This document shows positions 39,156-62,105 of a stretch of 64,000 nt of DNA, one piece after another. A model generated the notes under the pieces. That model was not told the DNA's origin, ran no database searches, and saw only the letters and a program-made list of their open reading frames with translations. A program made the position numbers and the translations under genes. Numbering within the stretch: position 1 is the stretch's first letter; each line of letters starts with the position of its first letter. Origin of the DNA: Myxococcota bacterium (lineage in GTDB: Bacteria; Myxococcota_A; UBA9160; UBA6930); assembly GCA_965223705.1 (NCBI GenBank), contig OZ245015.1, forward strand, positions 1,600,001-1,664,000. Direction: 5' to 3'.

Positions 39156-39210
39156 GGCGAGAGCGTATGGAAGCCTGGGCCGGTGGGGCAAGCGGGTGCT
39201 GGGCGCGCGA

Positions 39211-45200: not shown

Positions 45201-48200
45201 TGGGTGCCGGCTGGAACTGCATACCCTGGATCTGCGCGAGCGAGTACGTGCCCGTCGTGACCTGGGTGGTGTCGTCCGCGAGGTAGATGGTCCCGAAATA
45301 GACCGGATCCGGCACGACGGTCACTTCATACGTAAGGGTCTGGCCACTCTCATCCGAGCCGCCTCCCGCACCGTAGGCAAGGGCGCCCAGACCAAGCGAG
45401 GTCAAGCCCGAGTCCTCGGCAACGACGAGGTTGTTGACGGAACCCGCCGTGCGGACCGGGGCGTCGTTCACGGGATCCACCTGGATCACGAGGACGTCGA
45501 CGTCTTCTTCGCTCGAAGCGTCTCCACTCACGCCGGGATCGATTCCCGAGTTACCGAGATCGTTCGTCGCGATCATCAGATTCACGTTGCCGGTAAAGTC
45601 GGCGGTCGTGTCGAAGGTCAACGTGGCAAGGGCGGCATTGAGTTCGGCGATCGTGCCGGTGAACACCATGTTGGCGTCACTCGTTCCGTCCCCCGCCGAG
45701 AAGGAGAGGCCGGTGGTGCTCCCGAGGCTGAGTAGACCTCCCACACCGACGTTCAGCTGAACGCGCAACGTATCGGTCGGCAGCGCGTCGACGTCCCCGA
45801 CCTGCAGCGAGTCGCCCCCGGTGAAGGCGAGGGTTCCATCCTCGAGGACCGACACCGTGCTCGGTGCGGTATTCACCGGAGCGTCGTTGACCGCCGTCAG
45901 CTGGATCTGCTTCGTCGCCGTAGGACCGCTATCGATGCCGTCATCGAACGTGAAGGACACCGTACGAATGAGCTCGCTTGGGGCGTCGGACCCGTTGTAG
46001 AACGTGACGCTGCGGAGCGCCGCCTCGAAATCGGCCACACTCGCCGTCTGCCCCGCGCGTACCGACAGCACCAAGCGGTCACCGAAGTCCGTAGCGACAA
46101 TCGTCGTGGTGTCGGTGAACCCGAGCGTGTCGTCCGCGCTGTAGTTACCCGTGATCTGAACGACCGCAGTGTAGAGGTTGCTCGGGTCGACGCCTTGAGC
46201 GCCGTCGGGATCGACGAGGGTGAGGCCGGAGTCGATCGCGACCGCTGCCTGTTGCTCGGTGTAAGTGGTCGCGCCCGCGGTCGTCGTGATGACATTGACG
46301 TCGTTGTCACTCATGACGGTAACAGACGTCGTGGCGACGGGACTGTCGTCGCTACCGTCGTTCGCCACAAAGGTGATGACGCGCGTTGTCTCGTCCGGGG
46401 TCTCGGACGTGGAATCGTAAGTGACCGTTCGCAGGACCTGCTGGTAGTTCGCAACGGAATCCGATCCCGAAAGGAGCAGCGTTCCCGTACCCGGGTTGTA
46501 GCTCGCGAGAATCGAGGTTCCGGTGGTGTCGGCGGAGAGCAATTCCGCCGAACCGTCGAGCAGGTTCGCGATCGTCACGGCGAGCGAGGTCAGGTTCGAG
46601 CTGTCGACGTCACTGAGTGTTGCATCAGCGTCCACGATAGCCACCGGTCCGTTGCTTTCGGTCCAGCTCGTCGCAAAGTCAACACCCGCCGCTGCGGAAT
46701 CGTCCGCATCCAAGTCGAGGGCCGGCGCATCGTTTACCGGGTTCACCGCGATGGCAACCGTGCCACTCCCGACGTCATCGCCCGCATAGATGGCGGCGAT
46801 CTCATCGGCGGACAGCGCCTGGGTGTAGATCCGTGCGTCGTCCACCATGCCGAGTAGATCGAAGCTGCTGTCGGTAACATCGGCGTGGGTGCCGATGGTC
46901 GATTGCGGGAACCAACCGGTCCAAGTAATCGACGATGCGTAGCTGGCCGTGGCGACGACCTGTCCGTCGATATAGAGCGTCTGCGTGTCGTTGGCATCAT
47001 CGAAGCTGAAGGCCACATGGTGCCATTCACCGGCATTCATCGTCGTGCCACTTCCGATGAACTGGTGGGTCGAACCGTCGTAGAAGAAGGCGCTGACGCC
47101 CTCGCTCCAGTCGTTGATGCGGATGGCTACGTCATTGCCCAGAGAGATCAACTCGCCGCCATTCACTGCGGTGCTAGAAAAGTTGACCCAGGCCGCCAGC
47201 GTGACATCCGCCGGCTGCCCGTACAGGTCGTCGATGCGGACGTATTCTCCCGCCGCATCCAGCTGTAGCACTTCGCCGCGGTCGACATCCGCGGTGGTAT
47301 CGGCTCCGCCAACCAGCACGGCAGGTTGTGCGGTCCCGGCAGACTGGTCGGCAGCGGAACCGCCGGTAAACGTGTAGTGCCCCTGCAAGTCCGCGGCCAG
47401 CGCGGTGGTCATGTTCAGCGTTACCGCGCCGTTGTAGCCGGCATCCGGAGTAAAGGTCATGCCCTCCAGCGCGGCGTTGAGTGCCGACTCGGTGCCATTG
47501 ACGACAAAAGAGCCGGTGCCGTCACTGCCTTCGACGAAGTTCAGACCGGTCGTCTGCGCAAGCGTCAGCACGCCGTTGTCGACCGACAGGTTCACCTGAA
47601 ACTCCGTATTCGCGGTGATTACCGAGTCATCAACGGTCACGGCGTTGCCGTTGCCGCTGCTGAAAGTCAGGATCTGATTCTCGTCCACCGATTGCGGCCC
47701 TGGAAGCGACTGGCTGGCTTCGAGCGCGTTGTCGACCGAGATCGACATTACTTCGCTGTAGGAATGTCCGGCGGCGTCGGTGACCTCGACCGTGACGTCG
47801 TGAGAGGTCGCCGCTTCGTAGTCGAGCTGCGAGGCGTCGGCGACGGTAATCGCGCCCGTACTGCCGTCGATGGCGAAACGGCCATTGGCGTCATCCGTCA
47901 GACTGAATGCGTAGTTGCTGAGAACCTGGCTCGCGTCATATTCGATGATGTAAGGGCGAACGCCGATGCCTTCAGCGTCTGCCCATTGTCCGCTCGCGAC
48001 AAGCATGCGCGCAACATCCTCGTCGCCACCGCCCCCGGCGTCCACGCTCGGCTCGCCCACGAACCAGTTGACGTATTGTCCACTCACCGCGGTGCCGCCC
48101 GAATCGCCACTCCAGAAGGCTTCGTTTTCTTGTGCTCCCGAAAGCCAGCGCCAGTCACCCTCCGTGCTTTGGTCGGCCGCGCCGAGCCAGATATCCGCAC

Positions 48201-51200
48201 CGATCGTTTGCGCGAGGTCGTGAACGACCTCGTTCTCATACGCGGAATCGATAGTGACCAGCTGGCCAGAAATGCCATTCAACGTCGAGGTTGTCGCGAC
48301 ATAGAGTGCCGTCGACCAGTTGGCCTGCGTCGTCGCGACCTGATAGAACTTGCCGGTGGCCGCGTCGTAAGAGAGCGTCGGATCGTTGTTCAGGATCGTA
48401 CTGATCGCTAGCGGGACTTCGATGACCTGAACGTCGGCGATGAGCGGGCCGTAGCTGTTGGCGCCGTCCATCGAGGCGAATGTCAGCTCGGTGGCAGTTG
48501 AATCTGCCGTAAACGTGAAGGAGCGATGCTCCCACAACAGATTGGTGGTCGACCAATCGCCGGGTTGGGAGATCTGGAAATCCTGAGATTCGCCATTCGC
48601 TGCAGCTCTCAGGTCCTTGACGGCATCGCCACCACTCCAGTCCCCGCTGAGAGCAAAGACGACCTGGTACTGTCGGCCGACTTCAGTCGCCAACGTCTGC
48701 TCGATCACCCCGGCGGTCGAACCATTGAGGTCAATTGTATTGCCACCAAGCAGCGAGCTCTCGAGGGTGTTTCCCGCCACTTCGACGTCGCCGGATTGAA
48801 CCGTCCAAGGGCCGATCGTCGAACCCGCACCCAACAACTGGTATGAAGTGCCTTCGGACAAGAACAGCCCATCGCCGACGATATCCTGCGGCGAATCCGG
48901 ATCGCTCGGCACCACGAAGCCGACGGTCGTTCCGTCAACCGCGTTCTCGCTGACATGCAGGTCTTCAACCGGCGTACTGGCGGTGAAGCCAGCGCCGGCG
49001 GCATGACCGATGCTCAGGTTGTTGCCGCTCACAACATCGACGACCTCGCTCGATCCGTTGAAGCCGTCCATCTGCCAGTTGGCGATCAGGCCGCTGGGCA
49101 GGCTGCCGCTGTCGAGTTTCTGCTGGTGATTGAAGGCGATCTCACCGTGCGAACGGACCTCATTCCACACGCGGACGTCGTAGAGCGTGCCCTGGAACGC
49201 TTGGGTCGACTGGAAACTGCCGCCCAGAGCATCCTGTTCGTTGCCGATGATCAGAGTGCCGCCGGGATCGATCGTGTTCCCGATCTCGATGCCGGTACCG
49301 CTTTCGATCAATTCGCCGTTGCTGTAGACGGCCCAGCTCCCTGAGCTGTTTTCCCATGTCACCGCGAGGTGCTGAACACTGCCATCGCGCAAGGTGTTGT
49401 AGTCGATACTGGTCAGGTGAATATCGGTATCGGCTATGTAGAGGTAGGCGTCGTTGCCAGCGAAGACAAACACGAATTCGTTGTCGTTGGTCGCAGTTGC
49501 ATACGAGACCAACGGCGTGAAGGAGCTCGTGTCCGAGGTCGCGAACTGAATCTCGTAGGTCAGCGAAGACAAGCCGCCGAGAAGTATCCCGCCATCGTTC
49601 GCGACCAGGTAGGCATCATTCCCGCCGTCGGTGTTGAGCTCGATGCCGCTCGAGAGATCGGTCGGCGCGTTGTTGTCTTCAACGAGGTCGCGAAGCGAGA
49701 TAGTGAAGGCTTCGTCGTAGGCGTTGCCGTCGACATCGGTGGTACGAATCGTGACGGTGTGCGTCGCATCCGTTTCGTAGTCGAGCAGCGTGCCGTCCGC
49801 TACGCGAATCGTACCGCTGTTTCCGTCGATCTCAAACGCACCGGCCACCGTTTGCGACTGAATGGAGTAAGTGAGCGCTTGAGTTCCATCGAGAACGGCC
49901 TCAGCATCCCATTCGATGATGTAGGCGAAGTTGACATTGTCGCGATTATCCTCCCAGGTTCCGTCGGAGAGCATGTAAGCGGCGTCCTCGCCGAGACCGT
50001 TGTCGTTGGGGGCGGTCGCGGACTTCCAGTTCGAGTAGGTACCGTCGACCGACGAGCCGGTGACTGCACCGAGCCAGAAGTGGTCGCCAGCCGTGGCGCC
50101 CTCGTACCAACGCCACTCGCCCTCGACGTCGATGTCGGCGGCACCCAGCCATGTGTTCGCGCCGCCGATGACCGAGTTGAGTTGGATGTCGTTGACGACT
50201 TCGTTCTCGTGGGCCGAGCGAATCGTCACAAGCTGGCCGCTGACGCCGCCCAGCGTCGTGCCCGTCGCCGCGGACTGGGCGGTCAGCCAGGTCGTCGTGC
50301 TGCCGACCGCCTTGTAGAACTTCGCAGTGTGAGCGTCGTAGTAGAGATCCGGGTCCGCGGCGAGGAGGGCTGCGATTTGGGCGTCGCGCTCCGCATCGGT
50401 GCCCGATACTGTACCGACGACGGTCCCGTTCAGGGCGTTCTCTTCGACCGTCAGGCTCAACTGCGGTGAGCTGGAGGTGAATCCCCCGCCGGCGGCATGC
50501 GCGACCGTCAGGTTGTTGCCGCTGACCGATTCGGTGATCACCCCGTCGCCAGAGAGCTTGTCGAACTGCCAGTTGGCGATCAAGCCGCTTTCGTCGTGGG
50601 GAACGGTGCTGTTGTAGCGGGTGGCGATCTCGGCGGCGGTGCGCACATCATCGAAAAGGCGCACATCGTACAAAGTGCCCTCGAGAAACTCGGTCGAGGA
50701 ATAGCCGCCGCCGACCGTATCCTGATCCTGCCCAACGACGAGTGTCCCCCCGGCCGCAAGGGCCTGTGAGGCTGCCAGCCCCGTTCCGCTGTCGACGGAC
50801 ACCCCATCGACATACACCTCCCAAGCGCCGCCGCTTGCATCCCATGTCACCGACAGGGTGTGCGGCTCGCCGTCGGCGAGGCTGTGATAGTTGAAGGCGG
50901 ATGACTGTACGGTCTGATTGGCGACTTCGATCAGGAGGTTCTGATTGGTGAACACGGACAGGCGAACAGAATCGTCGCCGTCGGCGGCCATGTAGGAAAG
51001 CAGCTCGTGATTGTGGGAGGTGTCGCTATAGCTGAATCGGACCTCATATGTGAACTGGGTGGCCCCTCCCAGAATCGCTCCGCCGTCGTCTGCGATCAGG
51101 TGGGCGTCACTGCCGCCGTCCTCGTTCAGGCTTAGCCCGCCCGTCTCGGTGGCCGTGACCGTCAGATCCGAAGGCGCTGCGGGATCGACGGTGACCGTAA

Positions 51201-53466
51201 CCGACCCGCGATTGTCGCCGTTCGCGAGGCTCGATACTTCCGCCGTGCTCAGCGCAGTTCCGAAGATCTGTACCGAATCGAGAGATCCACCGAAGAAACG
51301 ATCGGCGTTCAGGTCCTGTCGGGCGCCCAGATAGAGCGGCCCCGTCGGATGGACACCGTCGGTCCCTCGCGTTGCGTCCGATGCAACACTCACGCCGTCG
51401 ATGAAGACCTCGATCCCGCTACTACTCACGGTGGCGGAATACGTGTGCCAAAGGCCATCTCCGACGAGGGGGAGTATGTCGACATCAAGCGCAGCGTTAT
51501 CGAGTGAGTCGTTCGCATCCCGGATCACCGTCCGAAGCTTTGCCGGGTGCGTGTCGTGCGAGGCTTCGCTGATGAACACGTTGACGCTGTTCATCGCATC
51601 GATATCACCGTGGCTGTAGAGATACTGAAAAAGGGAGCCGGAGATGTCGTCGAGCTTGAAGTCGAAGGCGATCGTGAACTCGCCCGAGTAATCGACGTTC
51701 GAGATGGAGACATAGTCGTCGGTCCCGTCGAAGGCGAGCGCATCGCCGAAATTCCCAGCGACCGTCGACGCGCCGTTCACGGTTCCGTCGGCGGACCCGA
51801 CTGCGTCGAGGGCGTCGCCGTCGAGCGCCCAGGAGTGCTGCAAGTCCGCTGCTGCGTCTGTGATGAGGTAGTCGAAGGTGTCGACGCCGACGTAGCTCGA
51901 GTCCGGCGTGTACGTGAACGTGCCGTTTCCATTGTCGACGACGGTTCCGTTGGCCGGCTGTGTGAACGAAATAACGCTCGTCGGGTCTCCATCCGCGTCG
52001 GTGTCGTTGGCCGTCGGGTCAAATACCAACGCGGTATCCATGGGTGTGGTGTAGGCGTCATCGACTGCGGTCGGCGCCGTGTTGGCAGGAGGGAGCGTTC
52101 CGAGCTGAGCGATCTCGCTGTCCGAGAGAGTCCGGTTGTAGAATCGCACCTCGTCGAGCTTGCCGTCGTAGTCGCCCGAAACGGGCGACGAGGAGCCGAA
52201 GCGAAGGTTCTCGCCGTTTGAAACCGAGCCGGTCGGACCCGACCACGTGTCGACATCGACTCCGTCGACGTGGAGCGTGAGCGAGCCACCATTGCGTTCC
52301 GCAACGACGTGGTGCCAATTCCCGTCGAGGAAGCCGCTTCCCCAAACAGCCTCGAACAAGGAGCCGTCGCTCACGCCGAAGTTGATGTAGCCGGCATTGT
52401 CGACGTAGACGACGAAGCCGGGGTCGCTACCCGTCGCCAGCTTTCCAAGAATACGCTCGGTGCCGGCGGGCGCACCGGATTGCTGGAACCAGAAGCTGAT
52501 CGAGAAATCGCCGGTGCCGAAGTCGAGGTGGCCGTCTACGGGGTCGGCGACTTCGACGCCGTCGGAGTCGCCCGAAAACTCGAGCGCGCCCGCCATCACG
52601 CCCGCGACGTGGGTGGGGCCCGGCGTACCGTCGTGGGTCCCGTCGGCGCCATAACTCGTGCTGTCGACGGCAGTCGTCCCCGAGCCCTCGTCGAAGGCAT
52701 AATGCGCGACGAGCCCGTCCGAGAGCGCGAGCAAGCCCTGCCACTGCGCGCCTTGTTCGGCCTGGAGCTGAGTCTGGGTCTCGACTTCACCCACGGTGTA
52801 TTCGAGGACCCAGTCGCCTCCGAGCGTTGCCGCTCCGGTGAGGTCGTCGCTCGCCGCGACATCGGCGCCGGTGAGCTTCGCAACTTGATCGATGAGCGAG
52901 TTTCCGTCGCCACCGTCGGCGAGCTCGCAACCGTAGAACAGGAGATCCGCGTCCTCCGCGAGCGAGGTCGACCAGCTGGTGAGCTCGTTCTCGTAAATGG
53001 AAAGCGTGTCGTTCGAGAGCCACGAATTCCCGAGCTGCACCGCCGCATCGCTGCCGTGGGAAATGATGTGCACCGCGTCTACGCGCTGGAAGTCCGCCAA
53101 GACCTCGCTGATCTGCTCGACGCCGTCGCGGTTCGATTCCAGGTAGAAGATCTCGAGTGACCTGCCTTCGGACGAGGTCGCGCGTAGATCCGCCACCAGC
53201 GATTCGTAGTCTTCGACCCCGGTGTCGACAAAGACCAACTCGAGTCGACGCTCTTCGGCCTGCGCATCGCTCGCGCTCTCGGGCTCGGCGGTCTCGAGGT
53301 TCAACGCAACCGGCGGGGTTTCTACCACGTCGGGCGGCGGAGGGACGTCCGCCGCGCCGGTCACCGTCGACAGAAGAATGCGCGGCTCGAGGGCTTCGAG
53401 CCGCGCGGTATCGCAAGCCGGGCGGACCGGTCGCTTGTGTTTTCGCCGCCGACGGGGAGGGGCCAT
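39211..53466 (-). CDS. Giant (~4,750 aa) repetitive adhesin-like protein: LEPR-XLL leader, DUF4347, LamG/pentraxin domains, C-type lectin domains, DUF642-like domain, cadherin and Ig-like (Big_9/tandem-95-type) repeats, hydrophobic C-terminal motif
   Basis: Uninterrupted 14.2-kb ORF. ATG 53466 with GGAG RBS is preferred over GTG 53484. Motifs LEALEPRILLS; LVFVD...HIISHG...YGC...VAASDDLTG...GGDW; LamG WHHV/DEVRFY; lectin WLGAAD..EG.WRW; cadherin LDYE; NDAP repeats. Confidence 0.95.
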   Translation of the reverse strand: MAPPRRRRKHKRPVRPACDTARLEALEPRILLSTVTGAADVPPPPDVVETPPVALNLETAEPESASDAQAEERRLELVFVDTGVEDYESLVADLRATSSEGRSLEIFYLESNRDGVEQISEVLADFQRVDAVHIISHGSDAAVQLGNSWLSNDTLSIYENELTSWSTSLAEDADLLFYGCELADGGDGNSLIDQVAKLTGADVAASDDLTGAATLGGDWVLEYTVGEVETQTQLQAEQGAQWQGLLALSDGLVAHYAFDEGSGTTAVDSTSYGADGTHDGTPGPTHVAGVMAGALEFSGDSDGVEVADPVDGHLDFGTGDFSISFWFQQSGAPAGTERILGKLATGSDPGFVVYVDNAGYINFGVSDGSLFEAVWGSGFLDGNWHHVVAERNGGSLTLHVDGVDVDTWSGPTGSVSNGENLRFGSSSPVSGDYDGKLDEVRFYNRTLSDSEIAQLGTLPPANTAPTAVDDAYTTPMDTALVFDPTANDTDADGDPTSVISFTQPANGTVVDNGNGTFTYTPDSSYVGVDTFDYLITDAAADLQHSWALDGDALDAVGSADGTVNGASTVAGNFGDALAFDGTDDYVSISNVDYSGEFTIAFDFKLDDISGSLFQYLYSHGDIDAMNSVNVFISEASHDTHPAKLRTVIRDANDSLDNAALDVDILPLVGDGLWHTYSATVSSSGIEVFIDGVSVASDATRGTDGVHPTGPLYLGARQDLNADRFFGGSLDSVQIFGTALSTAEVSSLANGDNRGSVTVTVDPAAPSDLTVTATETGGLSLNEDGGSDAHLIADDGGAILGGATQFTYEVRFSYSDTSHNHELLSYMAADGDDSVRLSVFTNQNLLIEVANQTVQSSAFNYHSLADGEPHTLSVTWDASGGAWEVYVDGVSVDSGTGLAASQALAAGGTLVVGQDQDTVGGGYSSTEFLEGTLYDVRLFDDVRTAAEIATRYNSTVPHDESGLIANWQFDKLSGDGVITESVSGNNLTVAHAAGGGFTSSSPQLSLTVEENALNGTVVGTVSGTDAERDAQIAALLAADPDLYYDAHTAKFYKAVGSTTTWLTAQSAATGTTLGGVSGQLVTIRSAHENEVVNDIQLNSVIGGANTWLGAADIDVEGEWRWYEGATAGDHFWLGAVTGSSVDGTYSNWKSATAPNDNGLGEDAAYMLSDGTWEDNRDNVNFAYIIEWDAEAVLDGTQALTYSIQSQTVAGAFEIDGNSGTIRVADGTLLDYETDATHTVTIRTTDVDGNAYDEAFTISLRDLVEDNNAPTDLSSGIELNTDGGNDAYLVANDGGILLGGLSSLTYEIQFATSDTSSFTPLVSYATATNDNEFVFVFAGNDAYLYIADTDIHLTSIDYNTLRDGSVQHLAVTWENSSGSWAVYSNGELIESGTGIEIGNTIDPGGTLIIGNEQDALGGSFQSTQAFQGTLYDVRVWNEVRSHGEIAFNHQQKLDSGSLPSGLIANWQMDGFNGSSEVVDVVSGNNLSIGHAAGAGFTASTPVEDLHVSENAVDGTTVGFVVPSDPDSPQDIVGDGLFLSEGTSYQLLGAGSTIGPWTVQSGDVEVAGNTLESSLLGGNTIDLNGSTAGVIEQTLATEVGRQYQVVFALSGDWSGGDAVKDLRAAANGESQDFQISQPGDWSTTNLLWEHRSFTFTADSTATELTFASMDGANSYGPLIADVQVIEVPLAISTILNNDPTLSYDAATGKFYQVATTQANWSTALYVATTSTLNGISGQLVTIDSAYENEVVHDLAQTIGADIWLGAADQSTEGDWRWLSGAQENEAFWSGDSGGTAVSGQYVNWFVGEPSVDAGGGGDEDVARMLVASGQWADAEGIGVRPYIIEYDASQVLSNYAFSLTDDANGRFAIDGSTGAITVADASQLDYEAATSHDVTVEVTDAAGHSYSEVMSISVDNALEASQSLPGPQSVDENQILTFSSGNGNAVTVDDSVITANTEFQVNLSVDNGVLTLAQTTGLNFVEGSDGTGSFVVNGTESALNAALEGMTFTPDAGYNGAVTLNMTTALAADLQGHYTFTGGSAADQSAGTAQPAVLVGGADTTADVDRGEVLQLDAAGEYVRIDDLYGQPADVTLAAWVNFSSTAVNGGELISLGNDVAIRINDWSEGVSAFFYDGSTHQFIGSGTTMNAGEWHHVAFSFDDANDTQTLYIDGQVVATASYASSITWTGWFPQSTIGTHADVTDSSFDLLGMVDDARIYTQALSADEIAAIYAGDDVGSGTVAIAVNPVNDAPALDLDADDSAAAGVDFATSWTESNGPVAIVDADATLSDVDSSNLTSLAVTIANLLDGSAELLSADTTGTSILASYNPGTGTLLLSGSDSVANYQQVLRTVTYDSTSETPDETTRVITFVANDGSDDSPVATTSVTVMSDNDVNVITTTAGATTYTEQQAAVAIDSGLTLVDPDGAQGVDPSNLYTAVVQITGNYSADDTLGFTDTTTIVATDFGDRLVLSVRAGQTASVADFEAALRSVTFYNGSDAPSELIRTVSFTFDDGIDSGPTATKQIQLTAVNDAPVNTAPSTVSVLEDGTLAFTGGDSLQVGDVDALPTDTLRVQLNVGVGGLLSLGSTTGLSFSAGDGTSDANMVFTGTIAELNAALATLTFDTTADFTGNVNLMIATNDLGNSGIDPGVSGDASSEEDVDVLVIQVDPVNDAPVRTAGSVNNLVVAEDSGLTSLGLGALAYGAGGGSDESGQTLTYEVTVVPDPVYFGTIYLADDTTQVTTGTYSLAQIQGMQFQPAPNESGSFSFFSFRVTDSGGTANGGSDSLTETLRIDVTAENDAPLLGNNALVISEGATVVLSASNVSASDVETAAGLLEFTVSSVSGGRFEAVANPGVAITTFTQQQVLDGDIQFVHDGGEAAPSYAVTVSDGSLSDGPEAAAITFTNVNDAPTAAADAAAVLEGGTTTIDLAANDTDPDDGVDPTSIEIVGAPSNGSLVVNGDGTVDYTHDGSETTTDSFTYRIRDASGAVSNTATVSVSVTPQNDSPFIDLDADDSSGTPGSDFETTFFEGGGPVLISDGDVVISDSDHANLASMTVLITNLLDGASESLSADVTGTAISASYDSGTGLLTLSGSDTLANYQAVLETVTYHNASASPDLTDRVLQTVASDGGPIVSHLSNIATTTIRIVGLNDAPTAVDDAAAVNEGASVGIDLAANDTDPDNPLDLTSIQIVGAPANGSILVNGDGTVTYTHDGSETTTDTFTYTIQDLSGATSNVATVSITVNPVNDAPTAGADAAVVNEGQSVVIDVAGNDSDPDSALDLGSIVITTAPTNGTLIDNGDGTLTYTHDGSETVSDTFAYRIDDVSGSSSNIATVNLTINAVDDSPILDLDFDDSSEVGEDFSTTFTEGGGPVLVVDSDGFIGDVDSANLAWLTATITNLQDGSAEILSANTTGTSIVASYNAVSGILLLSGTDSLANYQQVLRTITYDNSSAAPNTTNRYIDFEVNDGTTTSNTAVTIVSVVAVNDAPTAVGDAAIVNEGSSVVIDVAGNDTDPDDGLDLSSITVTGAPANGSLVDNGDGTLTYTHDGSETTADSFTYTIRDLSGAVSNAATVNITVNPQNDAPTAVNDAAVVDEGAAVGIDLAANDTDPDNPLDLTSIQIVGAPANGSILVNGDGTVTYTHDGSETIADSFTYTIRDLSGAVSNTATVTITVTPQNDAPTAVNDAAVVDEGAAVGIDLAANDTDPDNPLDLTSIQIVGAPANGSILVNGDGTVTYTHDGSETTGDSFTYTIRDLSGAVSNTATVNVTVNPQNDAPTAVDDAALVDEGAAVNIDLATNDTDPDNPLDLTSVQIVGAPANGSIVVNGDGTVTYTHDGSETIADSFTYTIRDLSGAVSNTATVTITVTPQNDAPTAVNDAAVVDEGAAVGIDLAANDTDPDNPLDLTSIQIVGAPANGSILVNGDGTVTYTHDGSETTGDSFTYTIRDLSGAISNTATVNVTVTPQNDAPTAVDDAALVNEGAAVNIDLAANDTDPDNPLDLTSIQIVGAPTNGSILVNGDGTVTYTHDGSETTGDSFTYTIRDLSGAVSNTATVNVTVNPQNDAPTAVDDAALVDEGAAVNIDLATNDTDPDNPLDLTSVQIVGAPANGSILVNGDGTVTYTHDGSETTADSFTYTIRDLSGAVSNTATVNVTVTPQNDAPTAVDDAAVVNEGAPVNIDLVANDTDPDNALDLASIQIVGAPANGTVLVNGDGTVTYTHDGSETTADSFTYTIRDLSGAISNTTVNVAVTPQNDPPTAVDDAAVVNEGAAVGIDLAANDTDPDNPLDLTSIQILGSPANGSIVVNGDGTVTYTHDGSETTGDSFTYTIRDLSGSISNTATVNVTVTPQNDAPTAVDDAALVNEGAAVNIDLAANDTDPDNPLDLASIQIIGAPANGTVLVNGDGTVTYTHDGSETIADSFTYTIRDLSGAPSNTTTVNVTVNPQNDAPVLYADTFGVGEGAGPGSWVGQVVAVDPDPGDSVVYAIVGGNVDGAFAIDPSTGDVFVANPNALGNSGRTAFDLMISAEDSAGAIDSRAVRVEIEAKQVVATPEPEEVASAEPSPDEPKVETKVATPQKEERISTADAHLTLGQVNEVVREKRELHAAASDSGRFETRGLTLVEAERTSGGTSQVFEEEHDKAAKRYVHPAFLESIETLRSELTRQLEEEGADIEWVHRSFQSLAIAGATGLLSVIMRSSSLAAIGFSAVPLWKRADPLTVLSLNEDQRRELEASLKSAEDKERQLDSVLGSDPEADA
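40147..43023 (-). repeat. Ten tandem 288-bp coding repeats (96-aa Ig-like domains; one unit is 285 bp)
   Basis: Unit starts (Asn-Asp codons) at 43023, 42735, 42447, 42159, 41871, 41583, 41295, 41007, 40722 and 40434. Consensus NDAPTAVDDAA.V.EGAAV.IDLAANDTDPDNPLDLTSIQIVGAPANGS..VNGDGTVTYTHDGSET..DSFTYTIRDLSGA.SNTATV. Confidence 0.97.
43453..44760 (-). repeat. Three further diverged copies of the 96-aa repeat, interspersed with a longer Ig-like repeat
   Basis: Copies begin at 44760, 44028 and 43740. The longer repeat (LDLDxDDS...EGGGPV...ANYQxVL) occurs near 46730, 44470 and 43450. Confidence 0.85.
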
Positions 53467-53649: not shown

Positions 53650-55395
53650 ATGACCGAAGCGATGACGCGCGCGTTCGACACGTGGCTTGCCGCCTTGTGC
53701 TCGGGGAGGTCCGGTGCACAGGCGACGCTGTGGCAGGCGAAGGCCGAGGGCGCTCTCGATCCGCTTGCACACCGGGGGGCGGAAGAGGGCACCCTCGAGC
53801 GGCACCGAATTCCGGCACAGACCGCGGCCGGGGCCGGCCGGCCGGTGATTCAAGCCGGGGACAACGCCGATTTGTTGGCCGCTGCGCACGGCGATTTCGT
53901 CGTGGTCCTCGAGCAATCGTCGACGTCGCCGCGCGAACAAGAAACCGCGCTTCGCGAGCTCGAGTCCGCGGTGCGTTGGTTGGTGTGGTCACGCAATCAC
54001 ACGCAGACGCCAGGCGCCGCCAAGCCCGACGAAGCTGACTTGCCAGAACTCGTCGACTTCGTGGCGCTGGCCCTCGAGCCGCAACCCGCCAAGGCCACAG
54101 CGCTCGCCCTCAGTACCGAGCTGGCGTCACATCTGTCGGCCGACCGCGTGAGTGTCGGGTACCGAGAAGCGCAGACGGTCAGCTTGCGCGCCGTCTCCCA
54201 CAGCCCCGCCGTCGATGCGCGCTCGGATCTCGTCCGCTCGATCGTGCAAGCGATGGAAGAAGCGATCGAGCAAGACGCCGTCATTCAGTGGCCGTCGCCG
54301 GAAGATTCCGGGCTGGCGCTCGGGGCGCATCGAGAACTGGCGAAGCGGCACGGCGCGGCGGCGGCCTGGTCCTATCCCTTGCGCCATGGCGATGAGATCA
54401 TCGGCGCTCTGTGCGTTGAGTTTCGCTCGCGCGGTCACGGTACGGAAGAGCGGCGCGCCTTCCTCGGTCGGCTGACGCCTCTCCTCGCGCCGATCCTCGA
54501 CCTCCGCGAGCGCGACGACGCGGGCGTTTGGAAGCGGGCGCGAATTCTCCTCGAAGAGGATCTCCCGCGCGCCCTCGGTTGGGAGCGCCTGCAGGCACGC
54601 TTCGCCTTCGCCGCGGTGGCCGCACTCCTCTTGCTCCTCGGCGTGATTCCGGGCACCCAGCGCGTGGCAGCGCCGGCAGAGCTCGAAGGGGTCGTCCAGC
54701 GCGCGATCGTGTCGCCGATGCCGGCCTTCGTGGCAGAGAGCCGCCGACGCGCTGGCGACACCGTACGCAGCGGCGAGGTGTTGGGTGTTCTCGACGACGC
54801 CGAGCTCCTTCTAGAACAACGCAAATGGAACGCGAAGCGCGAGCAGCGCTGGAAGGAGCTTCGCGCGGCGATGGCCACCGAGGATCGTGCGAACGTTCGC
54901 ATCCTGCGGGCGCAAGTCGATCAGGCCGACGCGGAGCTCGAGCTCGTCACCGAGCAACTCAAGCGGACCCGACTCGTCGCTCCCTTCGACGGCATCATCA
55001 CCCAGGGCGATCTGTCGCAGTCGCTCGGCTCACCCGTCGATCGCGGCGAAGTCTTGTTCGAAGTCGCGCCTCTCGATGACTTTCGGGTGATCGTCGAAGT
55101 GGACGACCGCGATATTTCTCAGATCGAAATCGGGCAAGCCGGGGCGCTGACCTTGGCATCGCTGCCCGGAGAACCGCGCGCTTTCCGGGTCGAGCGCGTA
55201 ACGCCCATCTCGACGGCGGAAGACGGCAGAAACTATTTCCGCGTGGAAGGGGCGCTGACAGAGGCATCGACGGAGCTTCGACCCGGGATGGACGGCGTCG
55301 CAAAGATCGACGTCGGGCGCCGCAGCTTGCTCTTCCTGCTCACGCATTCGGCCATCGATTGGGTCCAACTCAAGTGGTGGGCTTGGGTGCCCTGA
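53650..55395 (+). CDS. GAF-domain-containing HlyD-family membrane fusion protein
   Basis: Cytoplasmic GAF-like region (ADRVSVG, AMEEAIEQDAVI, IIGALCVE), one TM, then an MFP (RAGDTVRSGEVLGVLDD, coiled coil, LVAPFDGII, LRPGMDG). Confidence 0.85.
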   Translation: MTEAMTRAFDTWLAALCSGRSGAQATLWQAKAEGALDPLAHRGAEEGTLERHRIPAQTAAGAGRPVIQAGDNADLLAAAHGDFVVVLEQSSTSPREQETALRELESAVRWLVWSRNHTQTPGAAKPDEADLPELVDFVALALEPQPAKATALALSTELASHLSADRVSVGYREAQTVSLRAVSHSPAVDARSDLVRSIVQAMEEAIEQDAVIQWPSPEDSGLALGAHRELAKRHGAAAAWSYPLRHGDEIIGALCVEFRSRGHGTEERRAFLGRLTPLLAPILDLRERDDAGVWKRARILLEEDLPRALGWERLQARFAFAAVAALLLLLGVIPGTQRVAAPAELEGVVQRAIVSPMPAFVAESRRRAGDTVRSGEVLGVLDDAELLLEQRKWNAKREQRWKELRAAMATEDRANVRILRAQVDQADAELELVTEQLKRTRLVAPFDGIITQGDLSQSLGSPVDRGEVLFEVAPLDDFRVIVEVDDRDISQIEIGQAGALTLASLPGEPRAFRVERVTPISTAEDGRNYFRVEGALTEASTELRPGMDGVAKIDVGRRSLLFLLTHSAIDWVQLKWWAWVP

Positions 55396-57536
55396 TGTCG
55401 GAACGGTTGTTCAGCTCCTATTGGTATCGCGTGGCGGAGCTCCGGCCGCGGCTCCGCGACCACGTCCGGATTCACCGACACGTCTACCGAGGCGAGCGCT
55501 GGTTTGTCTTGGACAACCCGGCGGGCGGGACGCAGTACCGGTTCGGGCGAGCGGCGAACTTCGTGGTAGAGCGCCTCGACGGGTCGCGAACCGTCAACGA
55601 ACTGTGGAATCTGGCGCTCGAGCATCTCGGGGATGAGGCGCCGAACCAGAACGCGATGATCACCTTGCTGGCGGAGCTCGACGCGGCCGATGCGATGGTG
55701 TCGAACGTCACGCCGGATACCAAGGCGATGTTCGAGCGCCATGCGCACCAAGAAAAACGCCGCAAGTCGAGCCGCTTCACGAACCCCTTGTATTTGAAGT
55801 TCCCGCTCTGGGATCCCGACCCGTGGCTCGATCGTTGGTTCCCCCGGGTTCGTTTTCTCTTCACGCGAAAGGTCGCGGCCGCTTGGCTCGTGCTCGTCGC
55901 ATGGGCAGCGTTTGAAGCTCTCCGAAACGCCTCGGAACTGGCCGCCTACGGTCAGCGCGCGCTGGGAGAGCCCAGCACCTGGTTTTTGGTCGTTCTTCTC
56001 TATCCCTTCGTCAAAGCGCTCCACGAGTTGGGCCACGCCTTCGCCGCGAAACACTGGGGAGCCCCGGTTCGAGAGATCGGCGTGATGTTCATCATTGGCA
56101 TGCCCGTCCCGTACGTCGACGCGTCCGCCACTTCGGCCTTTCCGAGCAAGTTCTCCCGCATGGTGGTCGCCGCGGCCGGCATCCTGGTCGAGCTCGCGCT
56201 GGCAAGCCTGGCGTTGCTCGCGTTCTTATCGATCGCGCCGGGCGTCCTGAAGCTCGCCGCGTTCAACGTGCTCGCGATCGGCGGTATTTCGACGGTGCTC
56301 TTCAACGGCAATCCGCTGATTCGTTTCGACGGCTACTACGTCCTGTCGGACGCGATCGAAGTGCCGAACCTCGCCGCCCGCGCGAGTCGTTTCCTCCGCT
56401 ACCTCGGTGAGACGCACATCTTGGGGCTTCCCGAGCGACGCGGTTCCGAGACCGACGCCCGGGTTCGCTGTTGGTTGTTCCTCTACGGCGCATGCGCGTT
56501 CGTCTACCGGATTTTCCTATCGTTGACGATCGCGCTCTTCGTCGCGGGGAAGTTCTTCACACTCGGGATCCTGCTAGCGGTGTGGTCGCTGCTCCTCCAG
56601 TTCGGCTTGCCGGTGCTGCGAGGGCTCGCACGGCTGCGGCTCGATCCTCGCGTCGGTGAGCGCCCGTTGCGCGTCGTCGCCGGTGCGGTCTGCGCGGCCA
56701 CGCTGACGACGCTCCTCGCGTTCGGTTTGCCGCTGCCGCTCTGGACGGTTTCGGACGGCGTCGTCTGGCTGCCCGAGCGATCACAGATTCGGACGGGCGC
56801 CGCCGGCATGGTGACGGCGATTCTCGCGACGCCGGGCGCGCGGGTCGCAGCTGGCGAGCCCCTCCTCGAAGTTCGCGACCCGATCTTGGCGGCGAAGGTC
56901 CGCGTGCTCGAAGCACGGGTGCGCGAAGCGACCGCGCGTATGGAATCCCAGGGCTACGAGGATCGCGTCGCGGGTGAGCTCGCGCGCACGGAATTGGGGT
57001 CGGTGAGAGCGGAGCTCAAGCGCGCCAAGCAGGAGCTGGGGGAAGAGGTCGTACGAGCGGGCGTCGCAGGTCAGTTCGTTTTGCCCCGAGCGGAAGATCT
57101 GGTCGGGCGCTATTTCGAAAAAGGCGCGGTCGTCGGTTACCTCAAGGTGGGAGGCGTGAGCACGCTGCGGGTCGTGGTTCGCCAACGCGACGTCGCCTGG
57201 GTACGCAATCAGACCGAACGGGTGAAGGTACGGCTGCCGGGTCGCGCTCCGGTGGAAGCGATCCTGGGCCGGGAAGTTCCCCAAGCAACCGCTCGCCTTC
57301 CGAGCTTGGCACTCGGCACCGTGGGAGGCGGAACCGTCGCGATCGATCACCGCGACGCCGAAGGCCTCACGGCGACCGAAGCGTTTTTTCAGTTCGACGT
57401 GCTCCTGCCGCCGAATACGGTGCCCCCCGGACTCGGTCTGCGGGCGAACGTTCGTTTCGACCACGGGCTCGAGCCGATCGGCTACCGGATGCTCCGGGCG
57501 ACGCGCCGTCTGTTTCTCCGGCGACTCCATGTCTGA
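55395..57536 (+). CDS. Fusion protein: PqqD/RRE-like N-terminus, M50 (site-2) zinc metalloprotease, and HlyD/lipoyl-like adaptor C-terminus
   Basis: ATG 55395 forms a TGATG overlap with the upstream gene. HELGH and NGNPLIRFDGYY metal-ligand motifs lie in a multi-TM region. N-terminal LDGSRTVNEL winged-helix-like motif; C-terminal PGARVAAGEPLL followed by a coiled coil. Confidence 0.85.
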   Translation: MSERLFSSYWYRVAELRPRLRDHVRIHRHVYRGERWFVLDNPAGGTQYRFGRAANFVVERLDGSRTVNELWNLALEHLGDEAPNQNAMITLLAELDAADAMVSNVTPDTKAMFERHAHQEKRRKSSRFTNPLYLKFPLWDPDPWLDRWFPRVRFLFTRKVAAAWLVLVAWAAFEALRNASELAAYGQRALGEPSTWFLVVLLYPFVKALHELGHAFAAKHWGAPVREIGVMFIIGMPVPYVDASATSAFPSKFSRMVVAAAGILVELALASLALLAFLSIAPGVLKLAAFNVLAIGGISTVLFNGNPLIRFDGYYVLSDAIEVPNLAARASRFLRYLGETHILGLPERRGSETDARVRCWLFLYGACAFVYRIFLSLTIALFVAGKFFTLGILLAVWSLLLQFGLPVLRGLARLRLDPRVGERPLRVVAGAVCAATLTTLLAFGLPLPLWTVSDGVVWLPERSQIRTGAAGMVTAILATPGARVAAGEPLLEVRDPILAAKVRVLEARVREATARMESQGYEDRVAGELARTELGSVRAELKRAKQELGEEVVRAGVAGQFVLPRAEDLVGRYFEKGAVVGYLKVGGVSTLRVVVRQRDVAWVRNQTERVKVRLPGRAPVEAILGREVPQATARLPSLALGTVGGGTVAIDHRDAEGLTATEAFFQFDVLLPPNTVPPGLGLRANVRFDHGLEPIGYRMLRATRRLFLRRLHV

Positions 57537-59496
57537 AAAGCTGCGTCCGAGCGTGCTCGCGGGGAGCTACCCTGAGAAGCTCGATCCGATGCGGCCGCGC
57601 CTCGAACGCTGGCTCAGCAAGGCGAGTGAGCGCCGCAAGCGACCGAGCCTCGCCAACCTGGAGGCCTTCGCACAACGCATTGTCAGGCGATCGGACGAAC
57701 TCCGATCCGTGTCGGCCGACGAGCTGCGTCAGCGGGCGGACGCGCTCCGTCCGAGCCTGCGGCGGGCGCTCGCGGGACCGCCGCTACTCGAAGCCTTGGC
57801 CATCGTCCGAGAGCAGTCGCGGCGCCACCTGGGGATGGCGCACTTCGAGGTCCAGATCATGGCCGGCTGTGCGCTCCTCCGCGGGATGCTCGTCGAGCTC
57901 GACACGGGAGAAGGCAAGACGCTCTCGGGGACGCTTCCCGCCGCGGTTGCCGCACTGGCGGGCATTCCGGTGCATGTGGTGACGGTGAACGATTACCTGG
58001 TCGAACGGGACGCCGAAGCCATGGCGCCGCTCTTCCAAGCACTCGGCCTTTCGACGGGCCGGGTCATCGAGGACGAGCCCGATCCCGCTGCGCGCCGCGC
58101 CGCGTACGCTTCGGACATCACGTACGTTTCGAACAAGCAGGTCGCTTTCGATTATTTGCGGGACCGCATTTCCCTCGGCGGACGCGGCGGGGAAATCCGC
58201 GGGGAGGTGCAGCGGTTCGCGCACGCGGCGGAGGCACCGCTTCTTCGCGGGCTCTGTTTCGCGATCCTCGACGAGGCCGACAGCGTGCTGGTCGACGAAG
58301 CACGCACGCCTCTCATCTTGTCTCGCACGGTGCCGTCGCCGGGCCTCGCAGAGATCGCGCACGATGCGTTGTCGATCGCTCGGGAGCTCGACGAAAAGGA
58401 AGACCTCCGCTGGCGACACCCCGCGGCACCCATCGAAGTCACGGCTTCGGGACAGGAAAAAATCATCGAGCGCTGCGAGGGCCGCGGCGGAGTGTGGAAC
58501 GCGCCGGCTCGGCGGGCCGAGCTCTTGCGCGTCGCACTAGATGCACTCTACCGCTACAAGCGCGACGAGCACTACATCGTGCGCGACGGGCAGGTGGAAA
58601 TCGTCGACCCCCAGACCGGGCGGTCGATGCCGGATCGCTCGTGGGAGGGCGGCCTCCAACAAATGGTCGAGCTGAAAGAAGGGTGCGAGCTGTCGGGCGA
58701 TCGCGAGACCCTGGCGCGCATGAGCTACCAACAATTCTATCGGCGGTATCTCCGTCTCTCCGGCATGACGGGCACCGGCCGGGAAGTGAGGCGCGAGATC
58801 GAAGCCGTCTACGACATGCCGATGATTCGGATCCCGCCTCGTCGGCCGTCGAAGCGAATCGATCTCGGAGTCCACGTAATGCCGACGGTCGAGTCGAAAT
58901 GGAATGCGGCCGTCGACCGGATCACGGAGCTCCACCGCTCGGGGCGCCCCGTTTTGGTGGGCACGGCGAGCGTCAAGACGAGTGAGCTCTTGAGCGAAAG
59001 GCTCGATCGGGCCGGTCTGACCCACCGCCTTCTCAACGCCCGGCAAGATCACGCCGAGGCGGAGATCATCGGCGAAGCGGGCTTTCCGGGACGCATCACG
59101 CTTGCGACCGCGATGGCCGGGCGGGGCTCCGACATTCGGGTAGAAGGGCGCGAGGAGGAGCTCGGCGGCCTCCATGTGATTTCCGTCGAGCGCGCGGATT
59201 CGGGTCGCGTCGATCGACAGCTCTACGGACGCTGCGGTCGGCAGGGAGACGCGGGATCCTTCGAACAGATCGTGTCCCTCGAGGACGAACTCGTTCGCAA
59301 CGAAGCGACCGGGAGAGTGCGTCGCCTCGTGGTCGCCTTCCTCCGCCGCCTGGGCGGCGGTTCATTCGTGGGGCGGCTTTTGTTCCAGAACCTTCAACGT
59401 CGAGTCGAACGCCGGCATGCGCGCGAGAGGCGCGCCGTCATGCGGCAAGACGAGCAGTTCGCTCGACTGTTGTCGTTCTCCGGCACAGCGGAATAG
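57529..59496 (+). CDS. secA: Accessory (secondary) SecA-like ATPase, C-terminally truncated (655 aa)
   Basis: Motifs ELDTGEGKT, VHVVTVNDYL, FDYLRD, DEADSVLVDEARTPLI, SGMTGT, GRPVLVGT, AGRGSDI, QLYGRCGRQGD, SLED. Ends about 70 aa after SLED. Confidence 0.93.
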   Translation: MSEKLRPSVLAGSYPEKLDPMRPRLERWLSKASERRKRPSLANLEAFAQRIVRRSDELRSVSADELRQRADALRPSLRRALAGPPLLEALAIVREQSRRHLGMAHFEVQIMAGCALLRGMLVELDTGEGKTLSGTLPAAVAALAGIPVHVVTVNDYLVERDAEAMAPLFQALGLSTGRVIEDEPDPAARRAAYASDITYVSNKQVAFDYLRDRISLGGRGGEIRGEVQRFAHAAEAPLLRGLCFAILDEADSVLVDEARTPLILSRTVPSPGLAEIAHDALSIARELDEKEDLRWRHPAAPIEVTASGQEKIIERCEGRGGVWNAPARRAELLRVALDALYRYKRDEHYIVRDGQVEIVDPQTGRSMPDRSWEGGLQQMVELKEGCELSGDRETLARMSYQQFYRRYLRLSGMTGTGREVRREIEAVYDMPMIRIPPRRPSKRIDLGVHVMPTVESKWNAAVDRITELHRSGRPVLVGTASVKTSELLSERLDRAGLTHRLLNARQDHAEAEIIGEAGFPGRITLATAMAGRGSDIRVEGREEELGGLHVISVERADSGRVDRQLYGRCGRQGDAGSFEQIVSLEDELVRNEATGRVRRLVVAFLRRLGGGSFVGRLLFQNLQRRVERRHARERRAVMRQDEQFARLLSFSGTAE

Positions 59497-61005: not shown

Positions 61006-61008
61006 AGC

Positions 61009-61920
61009 CTAGTCCAGGAGTTCGACGCTGCAGTGGAGGCCGGCCGCGACCTGGCCGTCGGGGTTTGGAAGCTCGAGCCGAACCTTGAACGTGCCACTAG
61101 CCGCGTCGACCACCGGATCGACCCGGTCGACCGTAGCCACGACCCGACTTTCGGCTCCGATCTCGGGCGATAGCGCCGCTCTCCGTCCGGGGCGGATTTC
61201 CCCGAAGCGGTTCGCGGGCAACAGCACGTCGACGTGCAGCGGGTCGATCTTCGCGATCGTGAGGATGGTCGCGCCATCGACAACCTCTCCCGGACTCAGG
61301 TTGCGAGCGACGACGAGTCCATCGATCGGCGACCGCAAGCGGCGGCGTTCGAGTGCGGCCTCAGCTTGCTTGAGTTCGAACCACGCGAGCTCTTGCGCTT
61401 CTTCGGCGCGGCGGAGATCGTGGCGCGCGATTCGCGCTTCGGACTGCATCTCGTCCCATTCCTCCGCCGAAAGCGCTCGACTCTCGAACAGCGTTGCGCC
61501 CCGCTCGGCGCGCCGCTCCTGCAACGCGACTTGTTCCTGCTGAGAAAGAAGCGTGCCCTCGGCTGTAGCGCGGGATTCCGCCGCACGGACCGCTGCCTCC
61601 TCGACGCCCGCTTCGAGCCGAACCACCAGCTCGCCGGCGGACACACGGTCGCCGACTTCGGGTGTCACTTCTTCGATGAGACCGACGGTTTGGCTGCCGA
61701 TGTCGACGAGGTCGGAAGGCTGGATCAGGCAGTCCAAAACGGTGGGATCCGCTCCCGACCGCGTAGCTGCGGCACTCGGCGGACGCTGGGTCGCAACCGC
61801 AGGCAGCGGATCGGGCTCGGCGGCATGCGGAACGGCGGCGCCGCCACCCACCGCGAAGGCAAACGCGACGAGCACCCAGACACTCCGATGTGATTGAAAC
61901 CATCCACCCTGACGGGACAC
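61009..61920 (-). CDS. Efflux/secretion periplasmic adaptor (MFP)
   Basis: GTG 61920 with GGAGG RBS. Motifs VGDRVSAGELVVRL, LRSPIDG, VDPVVDAASGTF. Ends 3 nt upstream of the DGC start. Confidence 0.88.
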   Translation of the reverse strand: MSRQGGWFQSHRSVWVLVAFAFAVGGGAAVPHAAEPDPLPAVATQRPPSAAATRSGADPTVLDCLIQPSDLVDIGSQTVGLIEEVTPEVGDRVSAGELVVRLEAGVEEAAVRAAESRATAEGTLLSQQEQVALQERRAERGATLFESRALSAEEWDEMQSEARIARHDLRRAEEAQELAWFELKQAEAALERRRLRSPIDGLVVARNLSPGEVVDGATILTIAKIDPLHVDVLLPANRFGEIRPGRRAALSPEIGAESRVVATVDRVDPVVDAASGTFKVRLELPNPDGQVAAGLHCSVELLD

Positions 61921-62105
61921 GACCGAGCCTCCACGAACCCGTTCTTCTTCGGGATTTCGAGGTGTCAGCCTGAGCCAGTCGTGGGGTGATCGTGGTTCAA
62001 AGCACCCATATCGTCTACACCGCAATTTCTGTTTCGCCGATGTGCCAGGGCGAGGGAGAACGCGAGGGGCTCGGATCGGGCCGTCGCTACAAGGGCACGG
62101 AAGCG

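Follow-up and report, generated by a model that had tools for sequence, protein, structure and literature searches.

The locus described here raises the question of how a giant adhesin-like protein could be selected for export by a cassette in which an intramembrane protease takes a central place and in which no ATP-binding cassette (ABC) transporter or C39 peptidase is found among the open reading frames (ORFs). It lies in a stretch of 64,000 nucleotides from a Myxococcota bacterium (assembly GCA_965223705.1, contig OZ245015.1, positions 1,600,001 to 1,664,000, forward strand), which we call the window and from whose first letter all coordinates are counted. An ORF at 55395-57536(+) encodes a protein of 713 residues, beginning MSERLFSSYWYRVAELRPRLRDHVRIHRH, in which an N-terminal domain resembling a recognition element (RRE) of peptides that ribosomes produce and that are modified after translation (RiPPs) precedes an M50 protease and a HlyD-type adaptor. 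A sequence-only reading had proposed that this domain captures the adhesin through its LEPR-XLL motif, as RREs capture RiPP leaders. Three independent comparative lines (co-occurrence of motif and protease, persistence of the motif where the SecA paralogue of the cassette is lost, and the leaders found beside RiPP-type relatives), all drawn from sequence, suggest that it is the RRE-M50 protein that reads the motif. The features on which the argument turns are the following.

55395..57536, + strand: RRE-M50-HlyD fusion, 713 residues, in which the RRE is followed by a membrane part of seven predicted helices (158-444) and, at 446-694, by a membrane-fusion-protein domain
55446..55703, + strand: RRE/PqqD-fold domain (fold and profile comparisons), residues 18-103, predicted cytoplasmic
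56022..56036, + strand: HELGH zinc motif, residues 210-214 (H210, E211 and H214 invariant in 119 homologues)
56304..56333, + strand: NGNPLIRFDG third-ligand motif, residues 304-313 (N304, P307 and D312 invariant)
39211..53466, − strand: adhesin-like cargo, 4,751 residues, with DUF4347, LamG, cadherin/Ig repeats and a C-type lectin domain
53368..53403, − strand: LEPR-XLL motif RLEALEPRILLS, adhesin residues 22-33, preceded by a basic stretch; proposed RRE ligand
52729..53238, − strand: DUF4347 domain, after the motif
39358..39438, − strand: C-terminal segment of moderate hydrophobicity in the cargo, residues 4677-4703; could be an anchor or an alternative substrate of the protease

The RRE fold and the protease motifs

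The segments that the sequence-only reading had quoted from the first ~100 residues of the protein are all present in the translation of the first 108 codons, and the three strands followed by three helices that it had predicted are recovered in an AlphaFold2 model of residues 1-125 (98-row alignment, pLDDT 85), with strands at 25-31, 34-41 and 46-50 and helices at 52-58, 67-81 and 85-97; their order is identical in the model of the complete protein. The closest RiPP-related structures are TbiB1 with its leader (Z 9.8, root-mean-square deviation (rmsd) 2.9, 82 residues aligned), lasso B1 (Z 9.7, rmsd 2.7, 83 aligned) and PqqD (Z 8.9, rmsd 2.7, 89 aligned), while TigE, ThcOx and PbtF are further structural matches of the isolated domain. 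When a profile of the domain is compared with the PDB, PqqD chains are the top three of four matches (best 3g2b, E = 5e-4). The Pfam PqqD model (PF05402) aligns with residues 38-98 at 23.3 bits if the domain is presented as an isolated piece (cut-off 23.4) and at 19.5 bits within the whole protein; many homologues carry this match, the NCBI label of the orthologues is already 'PqqD family peptide modification chaperone', and for this domain the ESM Atlas returns only PqqD-like or unnamed clusters. Foldseek with the full-length model gives adaptor matches only. It is thus shown computationally, on a predicted model, that residues 18-103 adopt a PqqD/RRE fold. R49 in β3 and Q85 in α3 are invariant across 98 RRE domains and may be considered candidate leader contacts; the β3 pattern D-P-x(3)-[RK]-[YF]-[FY]-[RQ] is conserved in both the export and the RiPP clades.

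In the protease part, the zinc ligands H210, H214 and D312, together with E211, show no variation among the 119 homologues, and both signatures of site-2 proteases are present, HExxH in a membrane helix and NxxPxxxxDG. The protease motifs are therefore intact by computation, and proteolytic activity is predicted from them. Pfam Peptidase_M50 aligns with residues 206-295 at 24 bits, below its cut-off of 27.2, and NCBIfam NF041824 (daptide intramembrane metalloprotease) aligns with residues 18-403, RRE included, at 147 bits (cut-off 300); the C-terminal part is matched by NCBIfam adaptor models. In a tree of 25 sequences (FastTree, midpoint root) the near, far and RiPP-type clades stand apart; since its deep support is weak and it bears on no direction of change, we claim no order of origin for these clades.

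Co-occurrence of the motif and the protease

The statement that the adhesin starts with a LEPR-XLL motif agrees with the score of NF012209 (LEPR-8K), which is 22.1 bits over a cut-off of 17. The adhesin gene is divergent from the cassette, and its start ATG at 53466 is preceded by GGAG. There is no hydrophobic signal peptide in the first 100 residues (best 19-residue hydropathy 0.87), no double glycine in the leader, no match of PF07595 to the leader, and no GGxGxD repeat of the repeats-in-toxin (RTX) type anywhere in the 4,751 residues. The hydrophobic C-terminal segment (39358-39438) is followed by W-x-x-x-D-P, a tail similar to that on the cargo of a second locus of the same genome and at two related loci.

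In the six frames of the organism's own genome (4.56 Mb) the strict motif pattern occurs 2 times, in both cases early in a large DUF4347-type ORF adjoining an RRE-M50-HlyD gene; the genome has two proteases of this kind, and each of them lies next to one of its two motif proteins. At the second locus the SecA gene is missing between the protease and the third adaptor. This second cassette (G000:C1:1199730-1218449) lies outside the window, and its cargo is apparently split into ORFs of 1,495 and 1,211 residues on two frames in a repeat region, which appears to be a frameshift or an assembly error. Among 201 genomes of the same phylum, 15 have a protease match (12 of the near clade, one planctomycete-like, two without HlyD). 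NF012209 at E<0.005 finds 11 genomes, all of them within the 12 with near-clade proteases, and the twelfth has LEELEARVLLS adjoining its cassette; the best E-value in the other 189 genomes is 0.025. In each of four genera represented by one protease-positive and one protease-negative genome, the negative member is also without the motif. Among metagenome loci a motif-bearing ORF was reached in 9 of 80, most of the stretches being too short.

The protease occurs in 75 of 301 sampled Pseudomonadota genomes. NF012209, a model independent of our data, matches 48 of the 301, and 46 of these have the protease; at E<0.01 the figure is 40 of 40. Among the protease-positive genomes that this model misses, 7 of 11 neighbourhoods hold a large ORF with an ALE[PQA]RxxFD[AG] variant. 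Because NF012209 by itself finds too few of the far-clade genomes (17 of 44), we built a profile of 31 rows from both clades, which scores in 71 of the 75 protease-positive and 4 of the 226 protease-negative genomes, the latter weakly (E 0.007-0.011). With the 29 training genomes removed, 42 of 46 protease-positive genomes still score, and at E<=0.005 all 67 genomes found carry the protease. The profile missed visible motif variants in G092 and G305; the variant in G305, one of the four misses, sits beside the cassette. Gene order varies among loci and the pairing of protease and motif is maintained; the motif tracks the protease genome-wide, even where the cargo gene sits away from the cassette. 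As judged from these sequence comparisons, the support for a link between protease and motif is strong.

Several loci deserve mention in their own right. A Syntrophales genome (G205, L261-L266) has five proteins with ILE[QPR]LEERIVLDGA, none of them in the retrieved protease locus, and because these proteins sit outside it one machine may serve several unlinked cargoes. A plasmid-borne version of the cassette, without SecA and with a 4,457-residue Ig-repeat cargo, occurs in Escherichia (18 records), Citrobacter (8) and Hafnia (L168 / L170, NZ_CP022155.1, and related plasmids). In a 1.8-Mb genome (G494, L257:17433-19622) an RRE-M50-HlyD gene has neither an adaptor match nor a motif protein in the surrounding 37 kb, and on a Phyllobacterium plasmid (L167:5788-14094) a gene annotated with an HrpK domain, without the motif, precedes an adaptor and an RRE-M50-HlyD gene, which makes this locus a possible exception or remnant. 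Planctomycetes also encode the fusion, with Stieleria, Rubripirellula and Pirellulaceae among the named matches.

The probable reader of the motif and the proposed mechanism

The short SecA paralogue of the cassette is rejected as universal reader of the motif because the motif persists where the paralogue was not found: searches recovered it from 8 of the 10 control genomes of the near clade and from none of the 44 far-clade genomes, although 40 of the latter carry the motif. Annotated loci on plasmids from Thalassospira, Variovorax, Niveispirillum, Azospirillum and E. coli are also without it, and in these a motif cargo, the RRE pattern and an intact HExxH are all present. The most telling evidence comes from RRE-M50 relatives without HlyD, which are 30-33% identical to the export type. 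In three of four such loci, which are kin, a short RiPP-like ORF of the VEELE[RK]RVAPS type lies directly upstream (KVEELERRVAPS, TVEEMEKRVAPS, TVEELEKRIAPS, TVEELEKRVAPS); one locus has two radical SAM/SPASM genes, a methyltransferase and a GNAT gene alongside, and in all of them the protease's own domain is the only RRE-like domain found. These loci (L067:4066-10315, L068:1-1443, L251:1-2363) seem to represent an uncharacterised family of RiPP clusters, whose precursors end in APSxANKKAPxPPPYAPGTDYGLVRRxNLxW and have no NCBIfam match, and whose enzymes are the RRE-M50 protease, GNAT, two radical SAM/SPASM proteins and a methyltransferase-TPR protein.

In the mechanism that we propose, the RRE would bind the cargo leader, Phi-x-x-[LM]-E-x-R, in the cytoplasm, most likely as a strand added to β3, and would present it to the active-site zinc of the M50 domain in the same protein; this domain would then remove the leader, probably near R29|I30. 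The unfolded cargo would exit with its N-terminus leading, by way of a channel that the membrane part of the protease, three HlyD-type adaptors and TolC would form, with the SecA paralogue giving a push in the clade of the window protein and being dispensable in another. We place the cut near R29|I30 because the cargo leader aligns with the daptide register (L23 at −7, L26 at −4, E27 at −3 and R29 at −1, against daptide L-7, M-4 and E-3) and because some cargoes read FEPMEPR in the motif position. We regard binding of the motif by the RRE as likely and the whole sequence of binding, cutting and export, by an adaptor/TolC machine without an ABC transporter, as reasonably probable; towards cleavage of the leader by the protease near that site, an argument from analogy, we lean slightly. 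The route and the direction of export we infer.

Several observations weigh against these conclusions. The comparison with known folds suggested in the sequence-only reading was favourable at the level of profiles (3g2b) and not with Foldseek, in which the isolated domain had no partner at an E-value of 0.001 or lower (TruD, TigE, lasso B1 and PqqD ranked highest), and winged helices with no relation to RiPPs reach the same top Z-scores (Rv2067c 9.9, PKMT2 9.1, NovN 9.1). The idea that RiPP leader logic was borrowed to capture a giant protein is supported in part, by the fold and the three comparative lines, and weakened by the fact that the fold is common to winged helices of non-RiPP enzymes. 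The cargo-motif profile matches the RiPP-like precursors badly (E no better than 0.22), and what they share is just an 8-residue pattern, V-E-E-L-E-x-R-V, for which 16 chance matches per Mb arise in six frames and which occurs 11 times in the short frames of the organism's own genome; moreover, a single family supplies all the loci with precursors, and at the fourth locus (G515) there is none. No motif was found in the retrieved DNA of the protease-positive genomes G494, G448 and G213, two of which are fragmentary, or beside the RRE-M50-HlyD gene of the Phyllobacterium plasmid. The sampled genomes include kin, hence the counts are not independent, and co-occurrence ties the motif to the whole cassette, adaptors also being found in both export clades. 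Finally, daptide leader mutagenesis concerns the RRE of MpaB and not that of the protease (PMC10036551; here and below, statements on cited sources refer to the available part of their text, unless given without restriction).

It could be argued that the motif is read by another component, either the GAF-like N-terminal cytoplasmic domain of the neighbouring adaptor or canonical SecA, with the RRE fold serving as a structural or docking winged helix. The partner adaptor does adjoin the protease in nearly all export loci, canonical SecA is present in every genome, and the tie with non-RiPP winged helices would be expected under such a scheme; yet the partner adaptors of the far clade and of Thalassospira have no GAF match in Pfam, the RiPP-type loci have a similar leader with neither adaptor nor SecA paralogue in the locus, and the β3 pattern is conserved through export and RiPP clades alike, and we consider this explanation unlikely. 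We give about the same low weight to the suggestion that the RRE binds the motif for tethering or regulated release, in such a way that the N-terminus stays anchored inside and cleavage by the protease comes later, or falls in the hydrophobic C-terminal segment. That segment is of a type cut by intramembrane proteases and is shared by some relatives, and c-di-GMP genes flank the locus as they do in LapA retention systems, but the C-termini of the cargoes vary widely whereas the N-terminal motif is constant. While LEPRxLL giants of Chlorobium remain in the producer until contact with the partner (10.64898/2026.03.19.712371), which would suit tethering, the daptide RRE-M50 protein is stated to remove a leader (PMC10036551).

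A third possibility is that the cassette and the adhesin were merely transferred together horizontally, the true substrate of the protease being an unseen small peptide. The distribution is patchy, with transfer proposed for it (PMC4452313), and RRE-M50 proteins elsewhere do process small peptides, as far as the available sources describe them. However, the motif follows the protease across genomes despite varying gene order and even with the cargo elsewhere, and neither the window nor the genome contains a conserved small ORF that carries the motif; we regard hitch-hiking as very improbable. We prefer the mechanism proposed above to these three explanations. As the sequence-only reading had noted, no RiPP modifying enzyme is visible nearby, none of these families being matched in the 38 of 82 window ORFs of at least 200 residues that were scanned (the others mostly overlap scanned ones on other frames), and in the genome the motif is found on giant proteins only, not on a short precursor within a RiPP cluster.

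The cassette and its relation to known systems

On the side of the protease the gene order is GAF-HlyD, RRE-M50-HlyD and short SecA, then a GGDEF gene and the third adaptor on the opposite strand; on the divergent side the adhesin is followed by TolC, an adaptor and a pump of the resistance-nodulation-division (RND) type.

53650..55395, + strand: GAF-HlyD adaptor, 581 residues (Pfam)
57529..59496, + strand: short SecA paralogue, 655 residues, with DEAD, preprotein-binding and P-loop domains and no wing/scaffold match
61009..62025, − strand: third HlyD-type adaptor, conserved cassette member
36774..39191, − strand: TolC-family gene directly downstream of the cargo, heading an RND pump operon

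Three adaptors are present and a TolC gene adjoins the cassette, but since this gene heads the RND pump operon its role in the export system is uncertain; in 6 of 10 annotated plasmid loci TolC is inside the cassette. The TolC-family protein of the window has 805 residues, including an extra N-terminal region of ~340 residues without a Pfam match, and is followed by the adaptor and the RND pump. The c-di-GMP signalling genes that flank the cassette include a PAS-GGDEF gene located between SecA and the opposite-strand third adaptor (59503-62025), an arrangement also seen in close relatives (L001, L002, L060). Some cassettes contain small genes, DUF3467 at four loci and a SapC-family gene at one (L160, L161, L162, L163, L169); DUF3467, found in 4 of 10 plasmid loci, was rejected as a required partner, as it was not found in the organism's own genome.

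If the proposal is correct, an RRE would for the first time be seen at work in protein export, and RREs would extend beyond RiPP biosynthesis; the choice of cargo by an ABC-less adaptor/TolC cassette would be explained, and the LEPR-XLL or planctomycete motif, LExLExRxLL, which from 2004 on has been called a probable signal for export (as cited in PMC8567305), would gain its missing receptor and signal peptidase. For this motif a candidate receptor, peptidase, binding surface and cut site are now named, and a 125-residue domain and a short peptide suffice for tests. The cassette is common, as the 75 of 301 Pseudomonadota genomes indicate, and the pathway would serve some of the largest bacterial proteins, the giants of the Chlorochromatium symbiosis included. 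Whether RRE-M50-HlyD is the signature core of an unrecognised and widespread secretion pathway, in which a RiPP leader peptidase has been fused to a type I adaptor, is an idea that we advance tentatively, at somewhat less than even confidence, and the novelty of an RRE in export, the missing receptor and signal peptidase and the service to the largest proteins are all part of it.

The gene cassette itself has been described. Kamneva, Poudel and Ward (2015; PMC4452313) reported a secondary SecA_DEAD locus related to type I secretion, with GAF-HlyD, Peptidase_M50-HlyD, SecA without wing/scaffold, a HlyD adaptor and no ABC transporter, all of which are found in the window; M50 was proposed as a pore and the role of the locus left unknown. 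In the available text of that work the cargo, its leader and the PqqD/RRE domain are unnamed, and the SecA-less clade is outside its coverage. Likewise, the planctomycete motif RRLxxExLExRxLLA (PF07595; Studholme 2004 as cited in PMC8567305) is thought to be an export signal, and together with LEPR-8K (NF012209) it shares with the window cargo an N-terminal basic stretch and LExLExRxLL on large surface proteins; the difference is that, in the portions available, receptor, peptidase and pathway have no assignment, and that PF07595 misses the leader in the window. A 2026 preprint (10.64898/2026.03.19.712371) describes two LEPRxLL giants that move into a partner cell without known transport signals, and that also neighbour a sapC homologue; its available text leaves M50 and PqqD unmentioned, and what is available of PMC10952558 and 10.1101/2023.11.21.568195 holds nothing further on a receptor for the motif.

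RREs hold leaders on β3 (PMC12710340, in the available text of which M50, HlyD and secretion are unmentioned; M50 and secretion are likewise unmentioned in PMC7470986). The nearest relatives are MpaP of the daptides (Ren et al. 2023; PMC10036551), a fusion of RRE and site-2 protease stated to remove the leader ELExMEAP, whose residues L-7 and M-4 the RRE of MpaB needs in order to recognize it, and, listed with MpaP as RRE-M50-type relatives, epipeptide EpeP/YydH and pearlin TglG, another M50 protein with a predicted RRE (PMC9016710; PMC10885120). The window protein resembles MpaP in its N-terminal RRE on a site-2 protease, and the leaders agree in their L-x-x-[LM]-E spacing (PMC10036551). It differs in reaching 147 bits against the NF041824 cut-off of 300, in its extra periplasmic HlyD domain, in a locus without daptide enzymes, and in a proposed substrate of 4,751 residues in place of a short precursor. 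In the literature searched, which left most subscription papers outside its coverage, we found no paper joining RRE, M50 and the LEPR-XLL motif. Published work covers the cassette (2015), the motif as a signal for export with no receptor assigned (2004) and leader peptidases of the RRE-M50 type; their connection appears to be new.

The system can lastly be set beside two well-known principles of export. In type I secretion (HlyB-HlyD-TolC, LapBCE) an adaptor and TolC form the conduit, and in peptidase-containing ABC transporters (PCATs) the exporter has a peptidase attached that binds an N-terminal leader and cuts it. The window system has adaptors like the former and, should TolC take part, would share its conduit; with the latter it would share an exporter-joined, leader-cutting peptidase. 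It differs from them in having no ABC transporter, C39 domain, double-glycine leader, RTX repeats or C-terminal signal, and from PCATs in that its peptidase is an intramembrane zinc enzyme fused to an adaptor.

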